NCBI GenBank assembly: GCA_963704755.1
Contig: OY969938.1
Span: forward strand, 1,950,001-1,982,000
DNA: 32,000 bases
Reading direction: 5' to 3'
Source of the DNA: an uncultured Chloroflexia bacterium
GTDB taxonomy: Bacteria; Chloroflexota; Anaerolineae; Anaerolineales; Anaerolineaceae
Position numbers and translations under genes: made by a program. The notes beneath the pieces are model-generated. The model saw only the letters and a list, made by a program, of their open reading frames with translations. It had not been told where the DNA came from and ran no database searches. This document shows positions 1,932-28,680 of the stretch, piece by piece. Positions within the stretch are counted from its first letter, which is position 1. The number at the start of each line of letters is the position of its first letter.

Positions 1932-1984
1932 ACGAATTTGATGTGGTTGCCGGGGCAAAGCCCCGGCAACCACATCAAATTCGT
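1932..1984 (-). terminator. 25-bp perfect stem, 3-nt loop; likely Rho-independent terminator for the minus-strand DUF362 gene; member of the CGAATTTGA hairpin family
   Basis: ACGAATTTGATGTGGTTGCCGGGGC-AAA-GCCCCGGCAACCACATCAAATTCGT. The plus strand has an A-rich run at 1916-1931, which is a T-run after the hairpin on the minus strand. Confidence 0.6.
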
Positions 1985-4432: not shown

Positions 4433-4596
4433 ACATTAGCCTCAGGGCGATTGCAGCCTGCCTGCATTTCGAGGGCAATTCCCCAAAGAGTGGGTTTTTG
4501 AGGGTTATTGTGGGGCGTAGCCCCACAATAACCCTCAAAAATATCTCTTTGTTGGGACTAAATTGGCATGATGCGATTGCCCTGACATTAGCCTCA
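4433..4596 (+). mobile_element. MITE-like non-autonomous element, copy A (140-bp core 4445-4584 plus 12-bp direct repeats)
   Basis: Flanking direct repeat ACATTAGCCTCA at 4433-4444 and 4585-4596. Imperfect terminal inverted repeat GGGCGATTGC...GCGATTGCCC. Central 22-bp perfect hairpin 4495-4541. 133/140 identical to copy B at 24629-24768. Confidence 0.7.
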
Positions 4597-4826
4597 TCCA
4601 TATCGATGAAGCAACTCCTGCCCTAATTATAATGAGATTTGCAGGACCGCTTTGACTGGAAACCGGCGGCCTCATTCCAAGGCAGTGGATTTACATCCCG
4701 GTGCTCACCAGATGAATCAGGCGCTTGACGCCACGGCCGTCAATGAATTAGAACCTCCTGGCTTAGCGTCCCTCTGACGAAGGTATGCCTTTAGTCAATA
4801 ATGTTTGCCTGGTTTGATCCGCACTC

Positions 4827-7264: not shown

Positions 7265-7464
7265 CAAATATCTTAGATTTTAACCCTGATTGTGACGGTC
7301 TGGCCTTCTCAGGAAAAATATTGTCTAGTTGCCAGGAGAAAGCCATGTAACAAGAACTGGCGCAGCTAAAAGAACCTAAAACTTTCAATGTTAAATATTT
7401 CATTTATAATATTTCAGATAGAGATTATAGTTAATAGAAACCGTTCCATCAAAGGGGTAAGAAA

Positions 7465-7516
7465 CCGAATTTGAGGTGTGTGGTGGGCACAGCCTACGCA
7501 TCCACCTCAAATTTGG
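7465..7516. repeat. Decayed member of the CGAATTTGAG hairpin family
   Basis: AATTTGAGGTG (7468-7478) pairs with CACCTCAAATT (7503-7513). The inner part is no longer palindromic. The left flank GGGTAAGAAACCGAATTTGAG resembles the reverse complement of the right flank of the 28562 copy. Confidence 0.6.
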
Positions 7517-7553
7517 GCCCCCTTTAGCCAATGAAACTGCAACGAGGTGAAAA

Positions 7554-7979: not shown

Positions 7980-8935
7980 GGCACGTCGTCCAGGATTTTT
8001 TCGCGCCGGCCATGCATGTAGGACGTACACCAGGCGTCCAGGTTGTCGATATCCATGCTGCGGTGGATGGCGATATACATATCGATCTCGCGCAGCTTGA
8101 GGAAGCGCGGAATTTCCTGCAGCCAGGCCGGGTCGAGCGAATTTTCCAGGGAATAGCCTTCCATCAGCTCATGGTAAGTGCGCTGGGCAAAGGCCAGGTT
8201 TTCAGCGCCCACGCAGTCCAGCGGCAAGACGTACATCAGGGCCATGGCCAGGTCGTAGGCGAACCAGCCATACAGGCAGTCGTCGAAATCGAAAAGGGTA
8301 ATCCGCCCGTCCAGCACGTGAAAATTGCCCCCGTGCACGTCCTGGTGGATCATGCCATACAAATCGCAGTCCGTAGGCAGCGTGAACAGCCCGGCCAAGA
8401 TCTGGCGGAACTTTTCGGCCACCACCTGCTCGCCTACCGGTAAAAAGCGCTCGAAATCCTGCAAGTCCTCGATGACCTGCGGCCGCCGTGCCAGCGGATC
8501 AACCGGCTGGTACGTTTTAGCCAGGCAGTGCATGCGACCCAGTAAACGCCCCACGCGGACCATCAATCCATTCTGCCAGTCTTCACGCCGGGGCGGGCTG
8601 CCGGGTGCATAGATAAACGAGGTCGCCTCAAAATATTCGGGCCCATCGCCCAGTACTTCGACCAGCTCGCCGGCCAGTGACGGCAATGGATAGGCCACCG
8701 AGACGCCATTCTCGGCCAGGTAGCGTAACCAATCTATCTCACCGCGGATCGCGTAAACGTCGCGGTGCAGGCTGTGGCCAATACGTAAAATCCGCCGGGC
8801 CCCATCATGGCGGTATTCATACATGAAGCTTTCGAACCCATCCAGCAGGCTGATTTCTCCCGGCTGGATGCCATATCGGCGCATGGCCTCGTTCAATATG
8901 GCGTCAGTATAACTTTCGCGGATTCGCTTTTCCAT
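7958..8935 (-). CDS. Phosphotransferase enzyme family (APH/choline-kinase-like) protein
   Basis: MIHQDVHGGNFHV (catalytic loop HxDxxxxN) and LFDFDD (DFD metal-binding motif). Confidence 0.75.
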   Translation of the reverse strand: MEKRIRESYTDAILNEAMRRYGIQPGEISLLDGFESFMYEYRHDGARRILRIGHSLHRDVYAIRGEIDWLRYLAENGVSVAYPLPSLAGELVEVLGDGPEYFEATSFIYAPGSPPRREDWQNGLMVRVGRLLGRMHCLAKTYQPVDPLARRPQVIEDLQDFERFLPVGEQVVAEKFRQILAGLFTLPTDCDLYGMIHQDVHGGNFHVLDGRITLFDFDDCLYGWFAYDLAMALMYVLPLDCVGAENLAFAQRTYHELMEGYSLENSLDPAWLQEIPRFLKLREIDMYIAIHRSMDIDNLDAWCTSYMHGRREKILDDVPYAAISF

Positions 8936-9246
8936 AAGAAATTTGCTGCCCCACCTGGATTAAAGATTTATTGGTAAAAGTATTGTAACCCGAGTTTGAT
9001 TTTGCAACACCCGCCGGCCGGCCAGTAGTGCATATCGGGGCGCAGCCTCTCCTTTCCCGATTCCCGTCCAAAGCAAAAACCACTTTGGCGGGAAGAGCCA
9101 ATCGCCCCACCTAAAACCCGTATTTTGGATTTTAGCGGAATCAAAATTCTAATCTTTTGTGATAAACAATACGAAATTAGTTATAATACCTTGGATCGAT
9201 CCAATTCGATGATCCAATCCCATATTATTTGCCCAGGAGGAAAGTG

Positions 9247-9582
9247 ATGGCAGCAAAATTCGAGTTAAAACCAGCCAGCGGCGGAAAGTTCATGTTCAAC
9301 CTCAAGGCCGGCAACGGCCAGGTGATCCTCACCAGCGAAACCTACCAGGCCAAAGCCGGCGCGGAAAATGGGATCGAGTCGGTCAAGAAAAACGCGCCCA
9401 ACGATAGCAACTACGAACGTAAGTCGTCCAGTAAAGGCTCCCCATATTTCGTGCTCAAAGCCGGCAACGGGCAGATCATCGGCATGAGCGAAATGTATTC
9501 TTCCAATTCGGCAATGGAAGGCGGAATCGCCTCGGTCAAGCAAAACGCACCCACAGCCGAAGTCGTCGACCTGACGGAATAA
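9247..9582 (+). CDS. YegP/DUF1508 family protein (two tandem repeats)
   Basis: Two internal repeats (FNLKAGNGQVILTSETY...GIESVKKNAP and FVLKAGNGQIIGMSEMY...GIASVKQNAP). AGGAGG lies 6 nt upstream of the ATG at 9247. Confidence 0.8.
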   Translation: MAAKFELKPASGGKFMFNLKAGNGQVILTSETYQAKAGAENGIESVKKNAPNDSNYERKSSSKGSPYFVLKAGNGQIIGMSEMYSSNSAMEGGIASVKQNAPTAEVVDLTE

Positions 9583-9781
9583 TCCATTCAATCCAGTCCT
9601 CTCTTTATAACCGGGCTATAAATCAATTTAAGGACGCGAATGCGCGCTCCGCGCCATTTATAATATAGGGACGTCACGACCCAGCCTTCGCCAGGCGAGT
9701 AGCCAGCCCTTGCACCTGCTGGCCACTCACCTGGGAGGCGGTCGGGACTAACCTCAAGAGGAATGGAAATATAGACATCCA

Positions 9782-10441
9782 ATGAATTCCAATCACCACC
9801 AACACCCGGCCGTCGTGTTCGATTTTGGCGGCGTCTTGCTCGATTGGAGCGCGTATTACCTTTACGGAAAGCATTTTGGCGGCGACCTGGCAGCCGTGGA
9901 CAGGTTCCTGGACGAGATAGGGTTTGCCGAGTGGAACCACCGGCAGGACGCGGGCCGGCCCTTTGCCGAGGCGGTCGCCGAGATGAGCGCACGCTTTCCA
10001 CAGTACATCGACCTGATCCGTATGTACGACGAAAATTGGGAGGATTCGATGGGTGGGGCCATTCAACCAACGGTGGACGTGCTGGCAGCGTTAAAACAGG
10101 CCGGCTTTCCACTGTATGGCCTGAGCAACTGGTCGGCCGAAAAATTCCGTCTGGTACGCCCCCAATATGAATTCTTAAACTGGCTCGATGACATTGTCAT
10201 CTCGGGCGAGGTCAAACTGGCCAAACCCGACCCGCAGTTCTACGCTGCCTTCCTCAAGCGCACCGGCCGGCCGGCCGGTGATTGCCTGTACATCGACGAT
10301 ACACTGCGCAACATCGAAGTCGCCAACGAACTGGGCTTCCAGACCATCTTGTTCGTATCCGGCGGCCAACTGGCTAAAGAGTTGCAACAGCGCGGATTGT
10401 TATCCGCGCAGGTCGTGGACCGGCTGATTGAAAAGGAATAG
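9782..10441 (+). CDS. HAD-superfamily hydrolase (subfamily IA-like)
   Basis: Motif I VVFDFGGVL, motif II LSN, and KPDP plus YIDD (motifs III/IV). Confidence 0.8.
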   Translation: MNSNHHQHPAVVFDFGGVLLDWSAYYLYGKHFGGDLAAVDRFLDEIGFAEWNHRQDAGRPFAEAVAEMSARFPQYIDLIRMYDENWEDSMGGAIQPTVDVLAALKQAGFPLYGLSNWSAEKFRLVRPQYEFLNWLDDIVISGEVKLAKPDPQFYAAFLKRTGRPAGDCLYIDDTLRNIEVANELGFQTILFVSGGQLAKELQQRGLLSAQVVDRLIEKE

Positions 10442-10443
10442 GT

Positions 10444-11118
10444 ATGAACATCCCTGAGGAAAACAAACCCAACATATCTCGAGACTTGATTCGCATCCAT
10501 ATGATTATCTCCCGCGGCCTGGCGGTCGCGTTGGACTGCGGGCAGGACTTTTTGAACGGCGGCTTTCCGGACAGCCGCACCCGCCAGGGTTACCACGATT
10601 TTGTGGGCTGCCTGGTCTCCGTCATCGATGCGCACCACCTGGCCGAGGATGAGGTGGCTTTCCCGCGCCTGGGGGTCAAGATACCGGCCGCGCCTTACCA
10701 AATGCTGGCAGCCGAGCACCATAAGATGATTACCATTCTGGAGGAAATCAAAGCCGCGGTGGAGGATTTGCTGGGGGAAAACAGCGCACAGGCTTTGATA
10801 GTCTGCACAAATGCGCTAAAACGGCTGCGCTATATGTGGTTCCCGCACATCAAAATCGAGGAAACCCATTTTTCAGAGGACAAAGTCGCCGCAGCCATGG
10901 CCGGCGACGAGCAGAGTGCCCTCTCGGCCCAGATGGGCAAGTTCAGCCAGGAGCACACCAGCCCGGACTACCTGATTATTCCGTTTATCCTCTTCAACCT
11001 GCCCCCCGACGAGCGGGCCAAATTCTCGCAGGCCATTCCCCCGGTGGTGACCGAGCAGCTCGTACCCCACGTGTGGAAGGAACAGTGGCAGCCCATGGAA
11101 CCGTTTCTGCTGGAATGA
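10444..11118 (+). CDS. Hemerythrin/HHE cation-binding-like domain protein (tentative)
   Basis: Starts 2 nt after the HAD stop, so probably an operon. Spaced His/Glu pairs (HHLAEDE, AEHHKM, HIKIEETHF) resemble hemerythrin-like metal ligands. The assignment is weak. Confidence 0.5.
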   Translation: MNIPEENKPNISRDLIRIHMIISRGLAVALDCGQDFLNGGFPDSRTRQGYHDFVGCLVSVIDAHHLAEDEVAFPRLGVKIPAAPYQMLAAEHHKMITILEEIKAAVEDLLGENSAQALIVCTNALKRLRYMWFPHIKIEETHFSEDKVAAAMAGDEQSALSAQMGKFSQEHTSPDYLIIPFILFNLPPDERAKFSQAIPPVVTEQLVPHVWKEQWQPMEPFLLE

Positions 11119-11566
11119 GGGAAGACGCCGGCCGAAAAGATGCATTGGCTATTTGGCCATTGCTATAAACGGCTGGCCGCGCCCCTCACCTGGCCTGTCC
11201 CCGTCGTTTTGTATTGACCGGGTAAGAACACGTTCGTGGCAGCATATACAAGGTCTGAGTAGCTTCTCGCATATCCTATCAGTACTATTAGGTGGGATAA
11301 GCGCTCATCGATCATGAAAAACCTATCAGCAGACAAACTGGCGGAATTTGCGCGAATCAGATTTAGGATACGTTGGCAACGCACCAAAAGCATCGGCTTT
11401 TCATATAATTTAGTTACGAATGAATCGGGTTGGGGTACGATGGGAACACGAAAGTAAGCCAAACCAATAACAATTCCATGACCAGCCCGTGCCCAGGGTT
11501 GTTTGCTGTCCAAGCTCTATGGAACTTATTATCCCCTGCAATTGTGTTTTGTCGGAGTTAAAAGAA

Positions 11567-12277
11567 ATGGAAGATCAACGTTATTCAATAACCATAAACA
11601 ATATTCGATCGCCTGAAATTAAAGATTTCTTGGAAAATGCTTCTAATATCATGGCAGAAAATGAAAACTTCTTGTACTTCAAGGCACAAAATACTTACGA
11701 TGAAATTGTTGGGTTAGCTAATGACTATATTCAATACATCAGAAATCTTTTTAAAAGCGGGGCTACAACAAATGATTTTACACGTTTAGCTCTGCTCTAT
11801 TATCTTAATCATATTTTGCAACCTGGTTATGGATCAATTTATGTCAATTTCTTGCTGGGGAATGTTCCCTCTTGTTTCATGAATCTTAGGTTACAGACAG
11901 AATCTCTTTGTACGTGTTATCTCGCAGATAAAGATAATAAATCCATGGACTTCTTTCAAGACAGAATAAACACTTTTAAAGAGAAGTCAAACAACTACAA
12001 TATTACTCAATTAGTTAAAAGATTTGATAAGGAAATAGGTTCAACTGATGCAGCAACAACTCTTTGGAAAGAATTATCAGAATGGCTGCATACAAAAGGG
12101 GTTATGAATGAAATGGTCGAAGGTTTAATAGAGAGTTCAAATATTTCTGCCTGGAATTTGATTATCCCTATAAATTATTGTGAAAGCGATTTGTTTTCAT
12201 TGCAGGAATTGGGAGAAAAAATCCACAAATTTAGAGAATTACTCAATATGGCAATGAAACAATCCTCTCCGGAGTAA
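11567..12277 (+). CDS. Orphan hypothetical protein in a strongly AT-rich islet
   Basis: Long ORF in AT-rich DNA, where stop codons are frequent by chance. GGAG lies 9 nt upstream of the ATG at 11567 (the ORF track starts at 11489). Helix-rich, Asn/Lys/Ile-rich composition. I recognise no family. Confidence 0.6.
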   Translation: MEDQRYSITINNIRSPEIKDFLENASNIMAENENFLYFKAQNTYDEIVGLANDYIQYIRNLFKSGATTNDFTRLALLYYLNHILQPGYGSIYVNFLLGNVPSCFMNLRLQTESLCTCYLADKDNKSMDFFQDRINTFKEKSNNYNITQLVKRFDKEIGSTDAATTLWKELSEWLHTKGVMNEMVEGLIESSNISAWNLIIPINYCESDLFSLQELGEKIHKFRELLNMAMKQSSPE

Positions 12278-12515
12278 AATTTTTAAGAGAAATTATCAAC
12301 AAGATAATTTGCTTAACAAAATTTCTTTTTCGTTTTATATAAAATCGTTTATAAAAACGTCTCATCTCTACCAGAAGAAATAAATACGAATACTCCTGAT
12401 GCGTTACCAACGCACTCTACTTATCAGTAATCAGCGCATAATCCTTCTGCAGAAAATAACAGTAATTTTCAGTGGGTGTAGAGAAAGTGGAGGTGGTGAT
12501 TAACACTCGCCCAGG

Positions 12516-12579
12516 ATTGAACTAGCGGAATTTGTATAAATTCCGCTAGTTCAATTGGATGAATTTATACAAATTCCGC
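12516..12579. repeat. 18-bp perfect hairpin plus a third arm able to form an alternative 19-bp helix
   Basis: ATTGAACTAGCGGAATTT-GTAT-AAATTCCGCTAGTTCAAT (12516-12555). 12561-12579 (GAATTTATACAAATTCCGC) is the exact reverse complement of 12525-12543. Confidence 0.7.
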
Positions 12580-12622
12580 CAATACACTATAATTGACTTG
12601 AATCCAAAGCGAGGGGAACCTC

Positions 12623-13294
12623 ATGGAGCTCAATCGAAAATTCTGGAATGAACGGCAGCAGGCCCTGCGTCTGGCGCTGCGCGACCCGGCGGACCACCCG
12701 CAGGCGGTCGCGTTGTTCCTCGACCAGCACGCCATGGTCCACACGGCCGGTATGGCACAGTCCGGGTTGTGGTCCTTCGAGGACGAAGTCTGGCAGGGGC
12801 TGGACGAAGCCGCCGCACGCCAGGTACCGCCTAAACTGGAGCATTCCGTCGCCTGGACTACCTTCCACCTGGCCCGCATCGAGGATGTAACCATGAACCT
12901 GCTGCTGGTCGGCAGCCCACAGGTTTTCCGGCAGAGCGGCTGGATGGATCGATTGGGGATCCGCCTGGCGCATACCGGCAACGGCATGGACGAGCCGGCG
13001 GTCAGCGACTTTAGCGAGCAGGTGCATCTGGCTGCCCTGCGCGCCTACCGCCTGGCGGTAGGGCAGCGCACCCGCGAGATTGTCGGCCAAATCGACGCGC
13101 AAGCGCTGCGCCAAAAAGTTCAGCCGGCCCGCCTGCAACGGGTCCTGGACGAAGGGGCACTGGTCGAGGAAGCCCGCGGCCTGCTGGATTACTGGGGCGG
13201 GCTGACCGGCGCCGGCTTGCTGCTGATGCCGCCCACACGCCACAATTTCGTCCACCTCAACGAGGCATTGCGGATCTTAAAAAAGATGAAATAA
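12623..13294 (+). CDS. DinB-family (DinB_2-like) protein
   Basis: HSVAWTTFHLARIEDV is a typical DinB-fold helix with a His ligand. GAGGGG lies 6 nt upstream of the ATG. Confidence 0.7.
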   Translation: MELNRKFWNERQQALRLALRDPADHPQAVALFLDQHAMVHTAGMAQSGLWSFEDEVWQGLDEAAARQVPPKLEHSVAWTTFHLARIEDVTMNLLLVGSPQVFRQSGWMDRLGIRLAHTGNGMDEPAVSDFSEQVHLAALRAYRLAVGQRTREIVGQIDAQALRQKVQPARLQRVLDEGALVEEARGLLDYWGGLTGAGLLLMPPTRHNFVHLNEALRILKKMK

Positions 13295-13336
13295 ACGTTT
13301 TGGTGCGACATAGGCGCACCAAAACGTTTATTTCAT
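13286..13336 (+). repeat. 22-bp perfect stem hairpin overlapping the DinB stop codon
   Basis: ATGAAATAAACGTTTTGGTGCG-ACATAGG-CGCACCAAAACGTTTATTTCAT. No T-run follows, so terminator function is uncertain. Confidence 0.6.
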
Positions 13337-13357
13337 CCGGTTGGTGCTTGACTCCAA

Positions 13358-13403
13358 TAAATAAACAGTGTATATTTATATATAAATATACACTGTTTAT
13401 TTA
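13358..13403. repeat. 46-bp perfect loop-less AT-rich palindrome
   Basis: TAAATAAACAGTGTATATTTATA|TATAAATATACACTGTTTATTTA; the 23-bp arms were checked base by base. Confidence 0.85.
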
Positions 13404-13430
13404 AAAACCGCATAACCCAACGGAATAGAA

Positions 13431-13487
13431 TCTCGAAATTGAGGTGTTTGCAGGGACTTCGTCCCTGCAAACACCTCAATTTCGAGA
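13431..13487. repeat. 27-bp perfect stem, TTC loop: CGAAATTGAG hairpin family member
   Basis: TCTCGAAATTGAGGTGTTTGCAGGGAC-TTC-GTCCCTGCAAACACCTCAATTTCGAGA. Ends 49 nt upstream of the TetR start. Confidence 0.85.
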
Positions 13488-13535
13488 ACTTCTTAAAATA
13501 CGCCTGAGTTGGCGCGTTTATTGATTGGAGTAACC

Positions 13536-14234
13536 ATGTCCCGACCGAAACGCTCACAGCAAATCCCAAACCTGCCGGAGGTCATCAAAGAGACCGCCTG
13601 GAAGCAGATCGCCGAATACGGCGCGCCGTCGCTGTCTTTACGCGCCATCGCCCGCGAGCTGGGCCTTACGGCCCCCTCCATCTACCGCTACTATCCCAGC
13701 CGGGATGACCTCGTCACGGCCATGATCGTGGACGCTTACCACGCATTGGGCGAAACGCAGCGCGCGGCCGCGGCCAGCCTGCCTGCCGATGCGCTGGCCG
13801 AACGGTTCCGGAGGCTCGGCCTGGCCTACCGTGAATGGGCCATCGGTCACCCGCAGTGGTACCAGCTCATTTTCGGTACGCCCATTCCGGGCTACCAGGC
13901 CCCCGAAGACATAACTGTCCCGGCCGCGGCCTGGTCCCTGCAGCCGCTCATTGAAAACATCTCAGAACTGTCCGCTTCCGGCAAGCTGCGTTTGGAAGAT
14001 CTGGCCCCGCTCACCCCCCGGCTCGAAGGGATGCTGGCCGATTGGCTGGCCTTTACTGGCGATGCCGAGGTCGAGGTCCTTTACCTGGCCCTGGTCGTGT
14101 GGAGCCGGGTCCACGGGCTGGTCTCGCTCGAAATTGGCCAGCAAATGCCTTCTTTTATTAACGATCCCGCCGAGGTTTATCTGCGGGAAATTAACCACAT
14201 GTCCCGCCATTACCTGGCGGGGGAGAACGAATAA
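13536..14234 (+). CDS. TetR/AcrR family transcriptional regulator
   Basis: N-terminal HTH LSLRAIARELGLTAPSIYRYYPSRDDL. GGAG lies 5 nt upstream of the ATG at 13536. Confidence 0.85.
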   Translation: MSRPKRSQQIPNLPEVIKETAWKQIAEYGAPSLSLRAIARELGLTAPSIYRYYPSRDDLVTAMIVDAYHALGETQRAAAASLPADALAERFRRLGLAYREWAIGHPQWYQLIFGTPIPGYQAPEDITVPAAAWSLQPLIENISELSASGKLRLEDLAPLTPRLEGMLADWLAFTGDAEVEVLYLALVVWSRVHGLVSLEIGQQMPSFINDPAEVYLREINHMSRHYLAGENE

Positions 14235-15155
14235 ATGAACGAATTCCACCTGATTTTTGGAACCGGCCCGTTGGGCAAATCTACTGCCCGTGAATTGGTC
14301 CGCCTGGGCAAGCAGGTACGCATGGTCAACCGCTCCGGCCAGGCCAGCGGACTGCCCGAAAGCGTACAGATCCTGGCCGCGGATGCCTACAACACGGCCA
14401 ACAACATTATCCTGACCCAGGGTGCGGCGGCGGTCTATCAATGCGCCCAACCGGCTTACTACGATTGGGCCGAGAAATTCCCCTCTTTGCAAAGCGCCAT
14501 CCTGGAAGCGGCCGCGGCCAACGGCGCCAAGCTGATCGTCGGCGACAACCTGTACATGTACGGCGCCTTCCGCGGCGCGCTGCGCGAGGACTCTCCGCTG
14601 AACCCCAACACGCGTAAAGGCAAGGTCCGCGCGGAAATGGCCGGCCAGGTCATGGACGCTCACCAACAAGGCCGGCTGCGCGCGGCCGTCGGGCGGGCGT
14701 CGGACTTCTTCGGCCCGGACGATCATGGCCTGACCGGTTACCTGATCCGCCCGGCCGTGTCCGGCAAGCCGGCCAGCCTGCTCGGGCGGCTCGACCAGCC
14801 CCATACCTACACCTACGTCAACGACTTTGGCCGGCTGTTAGCCACCCTGGGCACTCACGACGAAGCCCTGGGCCAGATCTGGTTTACGCCCAGCAGCCCG
14901 GCCGTGACCCAGGCTGAATTCATCCGCCTGCTGGAGGCAGAGCTGGGCCACCCGGTCAAGACCATGGTCGCCGGCCCGCTGATGGTGGGCCTGCTGGGCC
15001 TGTTCAACAAGGAGATCCGCGAGACCGCCGAAATGCTGTTCGAGTGGCAAATGCCCTACGTGGTGGATACCGGTAAGGCCGAGCAAGCCTTTGGGCTGCG
15101 GCCCACCCTGCTCGAAGAGGCCATCCACGAGACGGTGGCCTGGCTGAAGGCTTAG
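14235..15155 (+). CDS. NAD(P)-binding epimerase/dehydratase-like (atypical SDR) protein
   Basis: The ATG directly abuts the TetR stop. N-terminal Rossmann motif IFGTGPLGKSTAREL. Confidence 0.75.
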   Translation: MNEFHLIFGTGPLGKSTARELVRLGKQVRMVNRSGQASGLPESVQILAADAYNTANNIILTQGAAAVYQCAQPAYYDWAEKFPSLQSAILEAAAANGAKLIVGDNLYMYGAFRGALREDSPLNPNTRKGKVRAEMAGQVMDAHQQGRLRAAVGRASDFFGPDDHGLTGYLIRPAVSGKPASLLGRLDQPHTYTYVNDFGRLLATLGTHDEALGQIWFTPSSPAVTQAEFIRLLEAELGHPVKTMVAGPLMVGLLGLFNKEIRETAEMLFEWQMPYVVDTGKAEQAFGLRPTLLEEAIHETVAWLKA

Positions 15156-15180
15156 GAATTTGGCCACAGATGGACACCTT

Positions 15181-15230
15181 CCCTCATCCCTCCCAACCCT
15201 CCCTTCCCCCAGAAAGGGGGAAGGGAGGGC
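15181..15230 (+). terminator. GC-rich CCCTC/GAGGG hairpin repeat, copy 3; possible terminator after the SDR gene
   Basis: 14-bp stem CCCTCCCTTCCCCC (15197-15210) / GGGGGAAGGGAGGG (15216-15229), then CTTTCT. Same family as 4827-4866 and 5099-5137. Confidence 0.5.
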
Positions 15231-22462: not shown

Positions 22463-23481
22463 TTACTTTGGAGCTTGCCCGCTGGAATGGCGGACGATTA
22501 ACTCCGGTTTAAGAATGACTTGCTGCTCTTCCAGTTTTTCTGCGCGCAGAGTTCGAATGAGCATTTCACAAACACGACTGCCGATCTGGTAAACCGGCTG
22601 CTTCAAGGTCGTCAGGGGCGGGTGGGAATGTTCGGCCATGGGGATATCGTCGAAACCGGTAATGGATATCTCCTTCCCAACCGTCAGGCCCTGATCTTGG
22701 GCAGCGCTCATCGCCCCGAAAGCCATCAGGTCATTACAGCAAAGGATGGCGCTGGGAGGGTCAGACAAATTGAGCAGGTGGTTGGCCACTTCGTAGCCGC
22801 CCGCCTGGGTCAAATCGCCCTGGATGAACCATTCACCCCGGATGGGCAGGTTCAATTCCTCCATCCGCATACGTACCCCGGATAAGCGGTGGGGGAAAAA
22901 TTCAAGTCCGTCGGTGGATAGATGCAGGCAATGGCGCGGTGCCCCAGCTCGTGGAGGTGGTCCACTGCCAGGCGCATCCCGAACTCGGAATCCTCATCCA
23001 CAAAGGGGAAATCGAGCGGCCCTTCCGTGCGGCCGAAGGCCGCAAAAGGGAACCTGGCCGCGCGTAAATAGCTGATACGCGGGTCTTGCTTGCGCGTGCG
23101 CACGATGATAAACCCATCCACGCGTTGGCTTTGCACATTGTGCCGGTAAGCCTGTAATTCCCGCTCTCCTGGCGGATGGGTCGAAACGAGCATGTCGTAG
23201 CCAAACTGAGCGGCCTTGTTGCCCACACCGGCGATGAACTCGCTGAAAAACGGGTCCGAAAAACGCGGCCCAAAGGTGGGCAGGATCAGACCGAGCGTAT
23301 CGGTGTGCTGTTTTTGCAGGCGCTGGGCCATCGAGTTGGGGCTGTAGCCCATCTCCGCCGCCACTTTGCGGACCAATTCCTTCGTCTCCGGGCTGACGTC
23401 GTCGTAATCGGCCAGTGCCCTGGACACGGTAGTGATGGATTTTCCAACCTGGCGAGCAATATCCTTGATCGTCGGCGACAC
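22463..23481 (-). pseudogene. LacI-family transcriptional regulator interrupted by a frameshift, or affected by a homopolymer sequencing error
   Basis: The N-terminal HTH and first half are in ORF 22852-23481 (IKDIARQVGKSITTVSRAL). The C-terminal half is in ORF 22463-22870, in another frame that stays open upstream through 22917. The frames meet at the plus-strand run GGGGGAAAAA (22891-22900). GTG start with AGGAG 5 nt upstream. Confidence 0.8.
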
Positions 23482-23508: not shown

Positions 23509-23540
23509 GGTGTACAGCCAAAACGTTTTGGCTGTACACC
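23509..23540. promoter_or_regulatory. 32-bp perfect palindrome with a LacI-type core CCAAAACGTTTTGG (candidate operator O1); second copy of the 14-mer at 23550-23563
   Basis: GGTGTACAGCCAAAACGTTTTGGCTGTACACC. The AAACGTTT centre fits the general LacI/GalR operator pattern (CG at the dyad). Confidence 0.55.
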
Positions 23541-23541
23541 T

Positions 23542-23570
23542 ATAATATACCAAAACGTTTTGGGAGTCAA
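23542..23570 (-). promoter_or_regulatory. Sigma-70-type promoter for the LacI gene and probably the sugar operon
   Basis: The minus strand reads TTGACT (23570-23565), a 17-nt spacer CCCAAAACGTTTTGGTA, then TATTAT (23547-23542). The spacer contains the 14-bp operator-like palindrome. Confidence 0.6.
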
Positions 23571-24616: not shown

Positions 24617-24780
24617 CTGTTAACGCCAGGGCGATTGCAGCCTGCCTGCTTTTCGAGGGCAATTCCCCAAAGAATGGGTTTTTGAGTGTTATTGTGGGGC
24701 GTAGCCCCACAATAACACTCAAAATTATCTCTCTGTTGGGGCTAAATTGGCATGATGCGATTGCCCTGCTGTTAACGCCA
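24617..24780 (+). mobile_element. MITE-like element, copy B (140-bp core 24629-24768 plus 12-bp direct repeats)
   Basis: Direct repeat CTGTTAACGCCA at 24617-24628 and 24769-24780. Same termini and central hairpin (24680-24724) as copy A. Confidence 0.7.
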
Positions 24781-24781
24781 A

Positions 24782-24835
24782 CGGGTTATGCGGTATTTTT
24801 GGCCGGCGCGCCGGCCAAAAATACCGCATAACCCG
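24782..24835. repeat. 54-bp perfect loop-less palindrome (27-bp arms)
   Basis: CGGGTTATGCGGTATTTTTGGCCGGCG|CGCCGGCCAAAAATACCGCATAACCCG. A solo 12-mer ACCGCATAACCC also occurs at about 13407-13418. Confidence 0.85.
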
Positions 24836-24845
24836 AATTACCCGT

Positions 24846-26327
24846 TCACTTCTTGAATAAGAAAAAGGCCTGGTTATTGGGCGTCAAATTATCGGTCGAA
24901 TAATCTTTGTTGGTGGTAATGACGTATTCAGACAGGTCCAGCGGAGCCAGGTACTGGTTGCTCAAGTAAAAATACTGGGCATATGGCCCATAAGGAATAT
25001 TATCGGCCAGGTAGATATCGTTGCCTGTGCCGGGCAGCTCTTCCAGAATATGGACAAAATCGTAAGTGTACTTGCTGTCATCCCCCGCTATCAACTCGTG
25101 CAGGGACCTGGTTTGGGAAATAGCACCCACGTATAGGACCAGACCCATTATGGCCAGGTAGACGGCCGTCTCTTTAGAGGGCTTCAGCAAAATAATCACC
25201 GAAACGAAGAAAACCAGCGTGAGGCCGATGAAATACATGGTGGTATAGTCGTGGAAGGCGGTCAGGCTGCGCAAGGGGAAGAGCCAGACGAAACCGGACA
25301 AAATAAGGATTAAGTAGATGATCCTTTTTTCCAGCGTTTGCTTGCGTATTGCAAACCACATCACCCCGAACATGACCACCAGCAGGGCCAGGTTACCGAT
25401 GAAACCCAGGTTCACCCGGTTGACCGGGAAAGCCCATTGGATAATCCGGTTGACCTCTGTCTTGGTAAATTCACCCCAGTTGGTGATATTTTGGTATTCC
25501 TGGTTGAAATCTGCGTTCAGCGACAGCCTGCGATCGGCGCTGTCGATAATGCCGGTCTGCAGGATGGGCACGTTTGTTTTTTGCGCCTCGATCACAATAT
25601 TATAGGAAAGAAGGCCGGCCCCCCACACGACGCCAAGGATAGACACGATAAAGGCGGGATGCCTCAGGATACTGCGGACCTTTTGGCCAAAGACCAGCCC
25701 TTTCGACTTGAGGATCAAAATCCCTTCGATTGCCAGCCACACAATTAAAACCGCAAAGGACGAATACCCCCGTCCCAGGGCCACGGCGATAACAGTGGCA
25801 ATATAGACCGGCAGTTTATACCCATCGATCTTATAGAGGGCTATGGCGTAAATGAGCAGCAAGAATCCAAACAAAGCCGGCTGGTCGAAATGCACCATGT
25901 CCTTAAAGAAAAGCAGGAACGGGTTCGAGAAAGCGATCAAGACCGCTGTCAATGCCAGCGGCTTGTTCTTCAGCAATTTATCGACGATCAAAAAGGCCAC
26001 AATGAGCGTGGCCAGAAAGATCAGGTTCATCACCTGCTTGGCCAGGTAGATCTGGCCGGACAGGGTCGAGCGCAATTCCAGCACCCGGTTGAACAGGGCT
26101 GCAAAAAAGACCGGGTAACGGTCGAAATAGTCATAGACGATTTTGCCGGTCTCGTCCTTGTATTGCTCCGCGTAGCCAACGAAATGGTTTTCCGGCGTCG
26201 AGGTCGCGATGATAGCCAGTCCCTGAGAGGACACCCAACCATGGTGGCTGGGCTGGAGAATGTCATAGCCTGGCTGCCAGCCCACAATCGTGTCCTGGAG
26301 CTTGAAAGTTGTGACGACCACCACCAC
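24846..26327 (-). CDS. Polytopic membrane protein, GT-C-fold (ArnT/PMT-like) glycosyltransferase candidate; 5' end uncertain
   Basis: Many hydrophobic segments with a large soluble C-terminal region. The GTG start at 26327 falls inside a hydrophobic helix, and the frame stays open upstream to 26459 without ATG/GTG/TTG. Lower GC than its neighbours. Confidence 0.55.
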   Translation of the reverse strand: MVVVVTTFKLQDTIVGWQPGYDILQPSHHGWVSSQGLAIIATSTPENHFVGYAEQYKDETGKIVYDYFDRYPVFFAALFNRVLELRSTLSGQIYLAKQVMNLIFLATLIVAFLIVDKLLKNKPLALTAVLIAFSNPFLLFFKDMVHFDQPALFGFLLLIYAIALYKIDGYKLPVYIATVIAVALGRGYSSFAVLIVWLAIEGILILKSKGLVFGQKVRSILRHPAFIVSILGVVWGAGLLSYNIVIEAQKTNVPILQTGIIDSADRRLSLNADFNQEYQNITNWGEFTKTEVNRIIQWAFPVNRVNLGFIGNLALLVVMFGVMWFAIRKQTLEKRIIYLILILSGFVWLFPLRSLTAFHDYTTMYFIGLTLVFFVSVIILLKPSKETAVYLAIMGLVLYVGAISQTRSLHELIAGDDSKYTYDFVHILEELPGTGNDIYLADNIPYGPYAQYFYLSNQYLAPLDLSEYVITTNKDYSTDNLTPNNQAFFLFKK

Positions 26328-26723
26328 TAGGATGCCGTAGCACAGGATTGTGGAAAAATTATTCTTTAAAAAATTGAAAATTGGCTCAAAAAAGGGGATT
26401 GTCTTGTCTTTGATGCTTCTGAAAAAAAGAGGCAGTTCTGTTCTTGACCATTGGAATACTCAAGTTTCTCGGACTGGAAATTTATTTTGGAAAGGCTCGG
26501 CTTCTGGTAACAAGGGAATAAGAAGCAATTTGATGGCAGGTTCCCGCAAATAATGCCCATCTATCCCCAAAAGCCCTTGGAAAACATTCTATCACATCCT
26601 CGAAAGTGGGTTGTAATGAAAGAAAGGGGCTCAGTGGACCCTCACCACGGCAAATCCCCAAAACCCAAAAAAGGCGACTGCTCAGCCGTCGCAGCATCAG
26701 AACTTGCTTGAGCAGCTACAAAA

Positions 26724-26760
26724 GGAGGTCGAAGCGCCACGTTGCAGCGCTTCGACCTCC
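26724..26760 (-). terminator. Probable Rho-independent terminator of pdxST
   Basis: GGAGGTCGAAGCGC-9 nt-GCGCTTCGACCTCC (14-bp stem), followed on the minus strand by TTTTG. Confidence 0.55.
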
Positions 26761-28281: not shown

Positions 28282-28494
28282 TTTCCTCTCCGGTTAGCTG
28301 TAATAAGAGTTTCGGGATACCTGCTCATGCTTGCGAATAATAGCATCGTTTGAGATATCCACGGGAACTTAACACCGCTAAACACCTCAAACGATGGTTT
28401 GTGATTAAGTCACTAAAATTCCATCCATACGACACTTCTAATTTTACCCTTTAACCTCTAAATTTGAATTGGATTCTTTTGAAAACCGCTCAAT

Positions 28495-28523: not shown

Positions 28524-28534
28524 AAGTTAAGAAA

Positions 28535-28645
28535 TAACTACTCAGGCTCCTATCAAAGATTCCCCGAATTTGAGATGTTTGCGAGGGCTTCGCCCTCGCA
28601 AACATCTCAAATTCGGGGTTCTTACCCGTTTGGCTGAGCAGTTAC
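28535..28645. repeat. Composite element: CTGAGYAGTTAC box pair bracketing a 27-bp perfect hairpin (28562-28618) of the CGAATTTGAG family
   Basis: TAACTACTCAG (28535-28545) ... CCCCGAATTTGAGATGTTTGCGAGGGC-TTC-GCCCTCGCAAACATCTCAAATTCGGGG ... CTGAGCAGTTAC (28634-28645). Confidence 0.85.
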
Positions 28646-28680
28646 GTTAAGAGAAAATCAAACCGGGTTCCGCCATCGCA

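Follow-up and report, generated by a model that had tools for sequence, protein, structure and literature searches.

The spacer between a DinB_2-family gene and a TetR/AcrR-family repressor gene on contig OY969938.1 of an uncultured Chloroflexia bacterium (family Anaerolineaceae; assembly GCA_963704755.1, positions 1,950,001 to 1,982,000, a stretch of 32,000 nt referred to herein as the window) harbours three perfect palindromes, designated H1, P2 and H3. These are probably (at roughly 0.8) unrelated to each other and of three different origins, with the spacer being a composite of a terminator-like hairpin (H1), a TetR operator palindrome (P2) and a MITE (miniature inverted-repeat transposable element) that inserted into that operator and has H3 as its core. 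The original prediction had treated all three as one phenomenon, a view that gives way here to a MITE core, a conserved TetR promoter/operator and a lineage-specific 3′-end hairpin. All appear to be elements of known kinds, and the MITE family, termed MITE-A, and the operator motif are apparently undescribed in the searchable literature. The puzzle of this spacer would in this way be reduced to known mechanisms, in a reconstructable and ordinary bacterial genome history, and dense perfect palindromes within a single spacer can seemingly represent superposed mobile, regulatory and terminator elements rather than one exotic structure.

With regard to the palindromes themselves, reading of the sequence together with a repeat finder applied to positions 13100–13700 places all three between the two genes, with arms that are 100 % complementary in each. 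H1, previously given as a 22-bp stem at 13286–13336, measures 23 bp at 13285–13337, and the earlier claim that palindromic DNA fills most of the gap is correct, at 156 of the 241 bp separating the DinB_2 stop codon (13294) from the TetR start codon (13536). Chance is excluded as their origin, since 30 dinucleotide-preserving shuffles of the window yielded no hairpin with a stem of at least 12 bp and a loop of at most 10 nt (the longest shuffled stem being 11 bp), against 16 perfect examples in the window itself. The features of the region, including the target-site duplication (TSD) of the MITE, the Shine–Dalgarno sequence (SD) of the TetR gene and comparisons with the related metagenomic contig L169, are as follows.

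12623–13294, plus strand: DinB_2-family gene (223 aa; Pfam DinB_2, 1.6e-06; stop codon TAA at 13292–13294)
13285–13307 and 13315–13337, plus strand: arms of H1, a perfect 23-bp stem with a 7-nt loop
13348–13376, plus strand: predicted sigma-70-type promoter of the TetR gene (-35 box TTGACT at 13348–13353, 17-nt spacer, -10 box TATATT at 13371–13376; 10 of 12 matches in the scan)
13351–13403, no strand assigned: putative remnant of an ancestral promoter/operator palindrome of about 60 bp (left arm 13351–13380; right arm 13381–13402, resuming at 13524–13531)
13358–13380 and 13381–13403, no strand assigned: halves of P2, 46 bp, loop-less and perfect
13361–13375 (ATAAACAGTGTATAT) and 13386–13400 (ATATACACTGTTTAT), no strand assigned: operator-like 15-bp dyad units in P2
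13395–13402, no strand assigned: left TSD copy (GTTTATTT), which doubles as the last part of P2's right arm and is single in L169
13403–13515, no strand assigned: 113-nt copy of MITE-A whose ends are degenerate (AAAACCGCATAACC... / ...GCCTGAGTTGGCGC); family profile at 13406–13513, E = 6e-19 (nhmmer)
13431–13457 and 13461–13487, no strand assigned: arms of H3, a perfect 27-bp stem with the loop TTC on the plus strand and GAA on the minus strand
13516–13523, no strand assigned: right TSD copy (GTTTATTG), differing by one T>G change from both the left copy and L169
13524–13531, plus strand: putative displaced right-arm end of the ancestral palindrome (ATTGGAGT), holding the SD of the TetR gene (GGAG, 13527–13530)
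13536–14234, plus strand: TetR/AcrR-family repressor gene (232 aa; Pfam TetR_N, 1.9e-11; TetR_C_33, 4e-19)

The H3 element and its empty site

The closest relative of the DinB_2 protein (76 % identity) is encoded on contigs L169 and L170, where the gene order is that of the window (DUF1508, HAD, hemerythrin, ..., DinB_2, TetR, epimerase, monooxygenase) and both the DinB_2 and TetR proteins are about 76 % identical to their window counterparts. Only these two contigs show such DinB_2–TetR synteny, which is missing from the 80 metagenomic TetR loci described below. In L169, positions 4670–4725 form an uninterrupted, loop-less and perfect 56-bp palindrome (CTCCAATAAATAAACGGTGTATATTTAT / ATAAATATACACCGTTTATTTATTGGAG), followed by cgttcATG, with the end of its right arm reading ...GTTTATTTATTGGAGcgttcATG. 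At the position corresponding to the MITE, both contigs read ...CTTGACTCCAATAAATAAACGGTGTATATTTAT directly joined to ATAAATATACACCGTTTATTTATTGGAGcgttcATG, with no MITE and with GTTTATTT present once, and they represent the empty site of the insertion. Deleting 13403–13523 from the window in silico restores ...CTTGACTCCAATAAATAAACAGTGTATATTTATA / TATAAATATACACTGTTTATTTATTGGAGTAACCATG, a 60-bp palindrome extending from the -35 box to the SD, and the L169 palindrome matches this reconstruction. In agreement with the same layout, the repeat finder reports 13351–13366 (ACTCCAATAAATAAAC) as the inverted complement of 13516–13531 (GTTTATTGATTGGAGT), across the element. Comparison of the same gap between relatives, as the original prediction had proposed, thus reveals a loop-less 56-bp palindrome devoid of the MITE, and the window and L169 form a clean before-and-after pair for a MITE insertion.

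The history suggested by these sequences would begin with a TetR promoter/operator palindrome of about 60 bp that ran from the -35 box to the SD. A 113-nt MITE-A would then have inserted in its right arm, duplicating GTTTATTT and shifting the SD and ATG 121 bp from the promoter/operator, and P2 would be the surviving perfect 46 bp, its right arm cut short and the left TSD copy included. Transcription from the old promoter, with a start site predicted near 13383, would consequently have to cross a hairpin of about -59 kcal/mol within a leader of some 150 nt. A further contig, L171 (JGI Ga0119857_1000676), from a lineage with a TetR protein of 67 % identity, carries another element of about 110 nt at 1375–1490, with its own 13-bp-stem hairpin (CGTCCCGAAGGTT...AACCTTCGGGACG), between the operator palindrome and the SD. 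This is nearly the same place as that of the window MITE, which suggests that the AT-rich end of the operator may be a recurrent insertion site.

H3 is one member of a family. It resembles two other perfect hairpins of the window (1932–1984 and 28562–28618), with the differences between them present on both arms, and a degenerate H3-like copy lies near 7465. A scan of the genome collection with a pattern that fixed only the outer stem (CGAAWTTGANNTG-N15-35-CANNTCAAWTTCG) identified at least 86 loci; among the matches listed, nearly all are from Anaerolineaceae or Anaerolinea metagenome-assembled genomes (MAGs), including dozens of copies in one MAG, DAIQPZ01. The layout of the family is GTAACTGCTCAG(G/C)C, about 18 nt, CGAATTTGAGGTG, a variable 11 nt, GAA or TTC, the complement, CACCTCAAATTCG, about 18 nt and G(C/G)CTGAGCAGTTAC, and full elements measure 108–112 nt between the termini GTAACTGCTCAG and CTGAGCAGTTAC. 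Amongst the 39 elements with both termini, flanking 8-bp direct repeats are identical at 8/8 positions in 14 and at 7/8 in 9, with offset controls reaching at most 5/8 and no other duplication length fitting. The duplications are AT-rich (73 % A+T), and the pair flanking the gap MITE is GTTTATTT / GTTTATTG. With the family profile, five copies are recovered from the window (28534–28646, 13406–13513, 1915–1990, 7439–7528 and a weak example at 28318–28391) and one from the relative L169. The elements are small, numerous and without coding capacity, and H3 is, on these features, the core of a fully palindromic MITE, non-autonomous and putatively mobile. No account of a family of this kind was found in the searchable literature.

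The ends of MITE-A are of the type found in the ISBst12 group of the IS66 family, given the 8-bp TSDs, the match to the terminal inverted repeat (TIR) of ISDge4 and the presence of a full-length IS66 relative on contig L104 (Ga0172370_10000213). For ISDge4, a member of this group, the TIR is given as GTAACTGCTCAGCA and the direct repeat as 8 bp (PMC12898284). The insertion sequence (IS) at L104:5696–7257 contains a single open reading frame (ORF) of 490 aa with DDE_Tnp_IS66 (5e-48), zf-IS66 and DUF6444 domains. Its ends (GTTACTGCTCAGGCATGAAAAGCCTGAATTGA... / ...CCTGCCTGAGCATTTGC; one end reading GTTACTGCTCAGGC...) match those of MITE-A, its flanks (CATTTTTC / CCTTTTTC) form an 8-bp repeat matching at 7/8 positions, and it shares its contig with a TetR orthologue. 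Pairs of TIRs lying 0.2–4 kb apart in Anaerolineaceae loci proved mostly to be neighbouring MITEs, with L104 alone holding a real IS.

A different identity for the family, as repetitive extragenic palindromic (REP) or REPIN elements mobilised by RAYT, an HUH tyrosine transposase, or as host-selected RNA hairpins serving as terminators or mRNA stabilisers, is considered very unlikely. Like REPs (PMC3733652), MITE-A copies are palindromes scattered through intergenic DNA, their loops very short and their stem residues covarying; however, REPs are imperfect palindromes of 20–40 bp next to a GTAG or CGTC tetranucleotide tag, with stems of 5–13 bp (PMC3733652), whereas the MITE-A unit is much longer, at 112 nt with a stem of 24–27 bp, has no such tag, and is bounded by GTAA... 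TIRs and by target duplications of exactly 8 bp, as is typical of DDE elements of the IS66 family. On tag, size and TSDs, a REP/RAYT identity is rejected. An RNA role might be read from some copies that lie just past stop codons, and from the T-run that comes after the copy at 1932–1984 on the minus strand, but the stems show no G-U preference and a scan of the whole window against Rfam at the gathering threshold returned no match. Furthermore, divergent spacers, which contain promoters, hold copies as often as the available DNA predicts: the distribution (16 divergent, 28 tandem and 10 convergent) is roughly proportional to the intergenic DNA of each type, and a terminator role for the family is rejected on this basis. 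Loop orientation with respect to transcription is likewise not significant (12 against 4). MITE-A is thus better described as an abundant Anaerolineaceae MITE family, which may be taken for a structured RNA or a terminator and which can be expected to break short-read assemblies.

A number of other observations concern this family and further repeats of the window. The commonest centre of MITE-A copies in the Anaerolineaceae MAG loci (L003–L088) is GCGAAGC / GCTTCGC, and GCGAAGC reportedly forms an exceptionally stable DNA mini-hairpin, according to Hirao and co-workers. At 26674–26719, two MITE-A-like termini lie about 20 nt apart (GCGACTGCTCAGCC...GCTTGAGCAGCTAC) and may represent an internally deleted copy; a hairpin with a 14-bp stem (26724–26760) follows. 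At 1915–1990, a copy whose ends have decayed extends over the 3′-terminal part of a response-regulator/ParA-like gene (707–1927), such that the last codons and stop of this gene lie within the MITE-A flank and the central hairpin begins 5 nt past the stop. The 12-mer ACCGCATAACCC, noted earlier as a solo half-arm of a 54-bp palindrome, was indeed found at 13407–13418, in the gap MITE's degenerate left end, as well as in both arms of 24782–24835, with about 0.09 chance matches expected; the 12-mer GGGTTATGCGGT occurs in none of the other loci. The palindrome at 24782–24835 is perfect and loop-less and is separated by 10 nt from the stop of the minus-strand ORF 24846–26327, on its downstream side. 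A motif absent from the other 170 loci, GGTTATGCGGT(A)TTTT, is common to this palindrome and to the gap MITE at its left end (13402–13417). This ORF was considered as a transposase and rejected, as it has no Pfam match. Adjoining the same palindrome is a copy of a second family, MITE-B, with 142-bp copies at 4443–4584 and 24627–24768 that are 94.6 % identical and have the TIRs CAGGGCGATTGCAG / ...GCGATTGCCCTG. Each has a central perfect hairpin with the loop GTA (4495–4541 and 24680–24724), with a compensated change between the copies, and each is flanked by perfect 10-bp direct repeats (ACATTAGCCT at 4433 and 4585; CTGTTAACGC at 24617 and 24769).

P2 and the promoter/operator of the TetR gene

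With the MITE removed, the reconstructed palindrome of about 60 bp (ACTCCAATAAATAAACAGTGTATATTTATA / TATAAATATACACTGTTTATTTATTGGAGT) is loop-less, lies directly upstream of the TetR gene, and encloses the -10 box along with a pair of 15-bp dyad units of the form ATA(A/T)ACA(C/G)TGT(A/T)TAT. In the window these units (13361–13375 and 13386–13400) flank or overlap the -10 box at 13371–13376, and GGAG at 13527–13530 precedes the start codon at 13536. A metagenome scan with the TetR protein gave 80 loci with 47–63 % identity, of which 75 had enough upstream DNA for comparison. In 73 of these 75, TTGACA, one to three dyad units around TATATT, AGGAG and ATG occur in the same order, and the window with 13403–13523 removed aligns to this architecture. 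Many of the orthologous loci possess perfect palindromes with arms of 15–30 bp, arm and loop lengths of 30/7, 23/1, 21/4, 19/0 and 18/0 being among them, and the operator palindrome of L171 has arms of 23 bp. BLAST matches of P2 sit upstream of TetR orthologues only. The neighbourhood is similarly retained: epimerase and monooxygenase genes lie downstream of the TetR gene in the window, and TetR–epimerase synteny is found in 51 related loci.

From these comparisons, P2 appears to be the truncated survivor of a TetR promoter/operator palindrome, with its right arm ending in the left TSD copy. The position, symmetry and conservation of the dyad units point to an operator role, and we infer that they are autoregulatory sites for two TetR dimers. 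The motif would provide a conserved promoter/operator for a widespread TetR–epimerase–monooxygenase cluster of the Anaerolineales and, with the repressor, a testable candidate regulator–operator pair.

Long, loop-less palindromes of this kind invite the suspicion that they, and P2 above all, are fold-back artefacts of assembly, or else very recent and unstable structures. Short-read contigs do show that palindromes disturb assembly. An independent assembly is available as two short Logan contigs, L001 and L002, from run ERR11571143, which carry the exact DinB_2 and TetR proteins. These stop at the exact centre of P2 (13374–13387) with an overlap of 14 nt, as expected since a de Bruijn graph behaves in this manner at a perfect palindrome, and the other end of L001 falls inside a hairpin at 15197–15229. 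Nevertheless, L002 is 99.92 % identical to window positions 8366–13387, with 4 mismatches over 5022 positions, L001 is 100 % identical to 13374–15209, and together they contain the whole of H1, the whole of H3 and one half of P2 each. The palindromes are therefore reproduced by an assembly that differs from the window elsewhere, an orthologous loop-less 56-bp palindrome occurs in a different organism (in two other samples, L169 and L170), and similar palindromes are found in dozens of metagenomes. The independent assembly and the orthologous palindrome exclude a fold-back artefact, and the suspicion as a whole has almost nothing left to recommend it. Perfect palindromes of this sort will, however, fragment short-read assemblies of these genomes, as contigs of a near-identical strain end there.

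The original prediction had also regarded such palindromes as prone to SbcCD-type cleavage, and had offered either recent formation or active maintenance as reasons for their persistence. The danger was overstated: the gap palindromes measure 46–57 bp, outside the SbcCD-sensitive length class. Work by Leach and co-workers in E. coli reportedly places strong inviability or instability with palindromes of roughly 150–200 bp and more. Recent formation is refuted for P2, which is older than the split from L169, and P2 is old, neither recent nor unstable, since its orthologue has endured the separation of lineages whose TetR proteins are only 76 % identical. Active maintenance fares better, in part and for P2 only, in that this relative keeps a loop-less palindrome with a compensated substitution and a symmetric 2-nt change at its centre.

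Another putative operator lies upstream of the DinB_2 gene. The region 12516–12586 contains a 40-bp perfect palindrome (ATTGAACTAGCGGAATTTgtatAAATTCCGCTAGTTCAAT), and a second, partial copy (GAATTTATACAAATTCCGCC) overlaps a promoter-like site at 12564–12593; this is probably an operator as well.

H1 and the weight of the composite reading

H1 is the least certain part of the composite. Its left arm holds the last codons of the DinB_2 gene (K-M-K-stop), the protein ending ...NEALRILKKMK where homologues end, for instance, ...ALRIKNKLIG or ...ALRIKQKIR. As an RNA, it would fold with -35.4 kcal/mol (z = -9). A T-run follows H1 on the minus strand only, and on the plus strand the U-rich segment GUUUAUUUCAUC is the base of the stem, at the end of the 3′ arm. 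Many orthologous loci have a hairpin with a T-run terminator immediately upstream of the TetR -35 box, and H1 accordingly occupies the terminator position. By this positional argument, H1 is most likely a terminator-type hairpin, possibly bidirectional, or one that stabilises the 3′ end of the transcript, and it appears to be recent and lineage-specific. It would have formed separately from the other two palindromes, partly from the last DinB_2 codons. The simplest origin is inverted duplication of the 3′ end of the gene by template switching, since one arm is coding sequence; the odds of this being how it arose are about even.

Another observation touching H1 is that 11 of the 14 bases of a motif at 23509–23563 recur in its arms, as AAACGTTTTGG, a likeness that may be chance. 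At this latter site, a perfect palindrome of 32 bp (GGTGTACAGCCAAAACGTTTTGGCTGTACACC) precedes TATAAT and a second CCAAAACGTTTTGG, upstream of a LacI-family regulator gene (22852–23481, minus strand), and these look like putative LacI-type operators.

A number of points weigh against the composite as a whole. For H1, no T-run follows on the plus strand, relatives turn up neither in the rest of the window nor in about 1.1 Mb of related loci, and the hairpin is absent from L169, the 491-bp spacer of which is unrelated to that of the window until the -35 box. For the MITE, the termini of the gap copy match the consensus at only 8/14 and 9/14 positions, so that its precise limits are set by the TSD and the empty site, and Pfam identifies no IS66-type transposase amongst the window ORFs, those other than 24846–26327 being housekeeping genes or regulators. 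For P2, TetR binding is a matter of prediction, and covariation between the operator arms is modest in 33 orthologues (82.7 % of cells pair, compared with 79.7 % after shuffling), from which it follows that long perfect symmetry is not required for an operator.

Perfect arms and comparison with known systems

A single process might also be envisaged that both makes and maintains all three palindromes, namely the homogenisation of arms by intramolecular template switching (quasi-palindrome correction). As a full explanation this is rather doubtful, despite a range of patterns that fit it. In P2, the centres of the dyad units are compensated between lineages (the window having ACAGTGT/ACACTGT, L169 ACGGTGT/ACACCGT and L171 ACACTGT/ACAGTGT), and the 2-nt difference at the centre of the palindrome is symmetric. 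In the MITE-A stems, 97 % of cells pair across 77 copies, and 146 cells carry a change on each side, where shuffles give 29.6 ± 4.4 (0/500 attaining the observed count), although such compensated cells may descend from a few founder copies. Mismatches of the G-U type (16) are about as frequent as those of the A-C type (15), which indicates no RNA-type wobble tolerance and speaks against selection for a helix in RNA. With the asymmetric outer arms as the reference, 15 copies have the loop GAA and 15 have TTC, and both orientations occur amongst copies with identical stems within one genome. Spacer inversion coupled with homogenised arms is a published signature of template switching (PMC8604942, PMC8794818), and the second arm of H1 copies coding sequence.

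Such a process nonetheless leaves the 8-bp TSDs, TIRs and dispersal of the H3 family unexplained, for which transposition is needed, as well as the conserved operator units, and many orthologous operators are imperfect. In addition, MITE stems decay as their termini decay (Spearman -0.37; from 0.19 to 1.73 mismatched pairs of 13), in a sample limited to copies with intact outer stems. The notion that the central stem stays perfect whilst the termini decay, considered as proof of maintenance, was dropped for these two reasons. Homogenisation is hence a possible overlay on the three separate origins and not a replacement for them. A broader form of the idea, put forward tentatively, is that long hairpin-forming inverted repeats of the Anaerolineae may be actively kept perfect by copying at the DNA level, either through intramolecular template switching in replication or repair, or through a hairpin intermediate of IS66/ISBst12-type transposition. 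If true, this would cover the MITE core as well as regulatory palindromes like the TetR operator, and would explain the compensated changes without wobble, the symmetric indels at centres, the 50:50 flip-flop of the loop and the derivation of H1 from a coding 3′ end.

Comparison with described systems places each component near a known type. In its perfect arms, compensated multi-site differences and spacer inversion, the spacer resembles the quasi-palindrome template-switch mutation of Ripley, Lovett, Loytynoja and Goldman, and Monttinen and Loytynoja (PMC8794818), with the distinction that the process is deduced herein purely from comparative patterns; with its compensated changes and loop flip-flop, the MITE-A family is a candidate natural system for such mutation in bacteria. 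H1 is akin to Rho-independent, including bidirectional, terminators in its location at a stop codon, its strong stem and an A-rich 5′ flank that pairs with a U-rich 3′ segment, and unlike them in that it has no free U-tract on the sense strand, includes coding sequence in a perfect 23-bp stem and is absent in a relative.

Autoregulatory operators of the TetR family include tetO of TetR and the 28-bp IR1 of QacR, which is bound by two dimers. P2 shares with these sites its palindromic nature, its overlap with the promoter of the repressor gene itself, its two units of about 15 bp, and a predicted position relative to the -35 box, -10 box and SD that is conserved in orthologues. Unlike the tetO and QacR sites, its symmetry is perfect over 46–60 bp in this sub-lineage, beyond the contact of a pair of dimers, and palindromes of the P2 type include the complement of the SD.

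Finally, MITE-A is comparable to ISDge4 of Deinococcus geothermalis in its terminal GTAACTGCTCAG(C/G)C, set beside the ISDge4 TIR GTAACTGCTCAGCA, and in its 8-bp duplication, and to ISBst12-derived MITEs in its lack of an ORF, its length of about 112 nt and its many copies. It departs from a MITE composed of two TIRs around unrelated filler in being one long palindrome with a near-perfect 24–27-bp hairpin and a GAA/TTC triloop, and from other ISBst12-derived MITEs in an inner stem that varies in a compensated manner beneath a loop found in both orientations.

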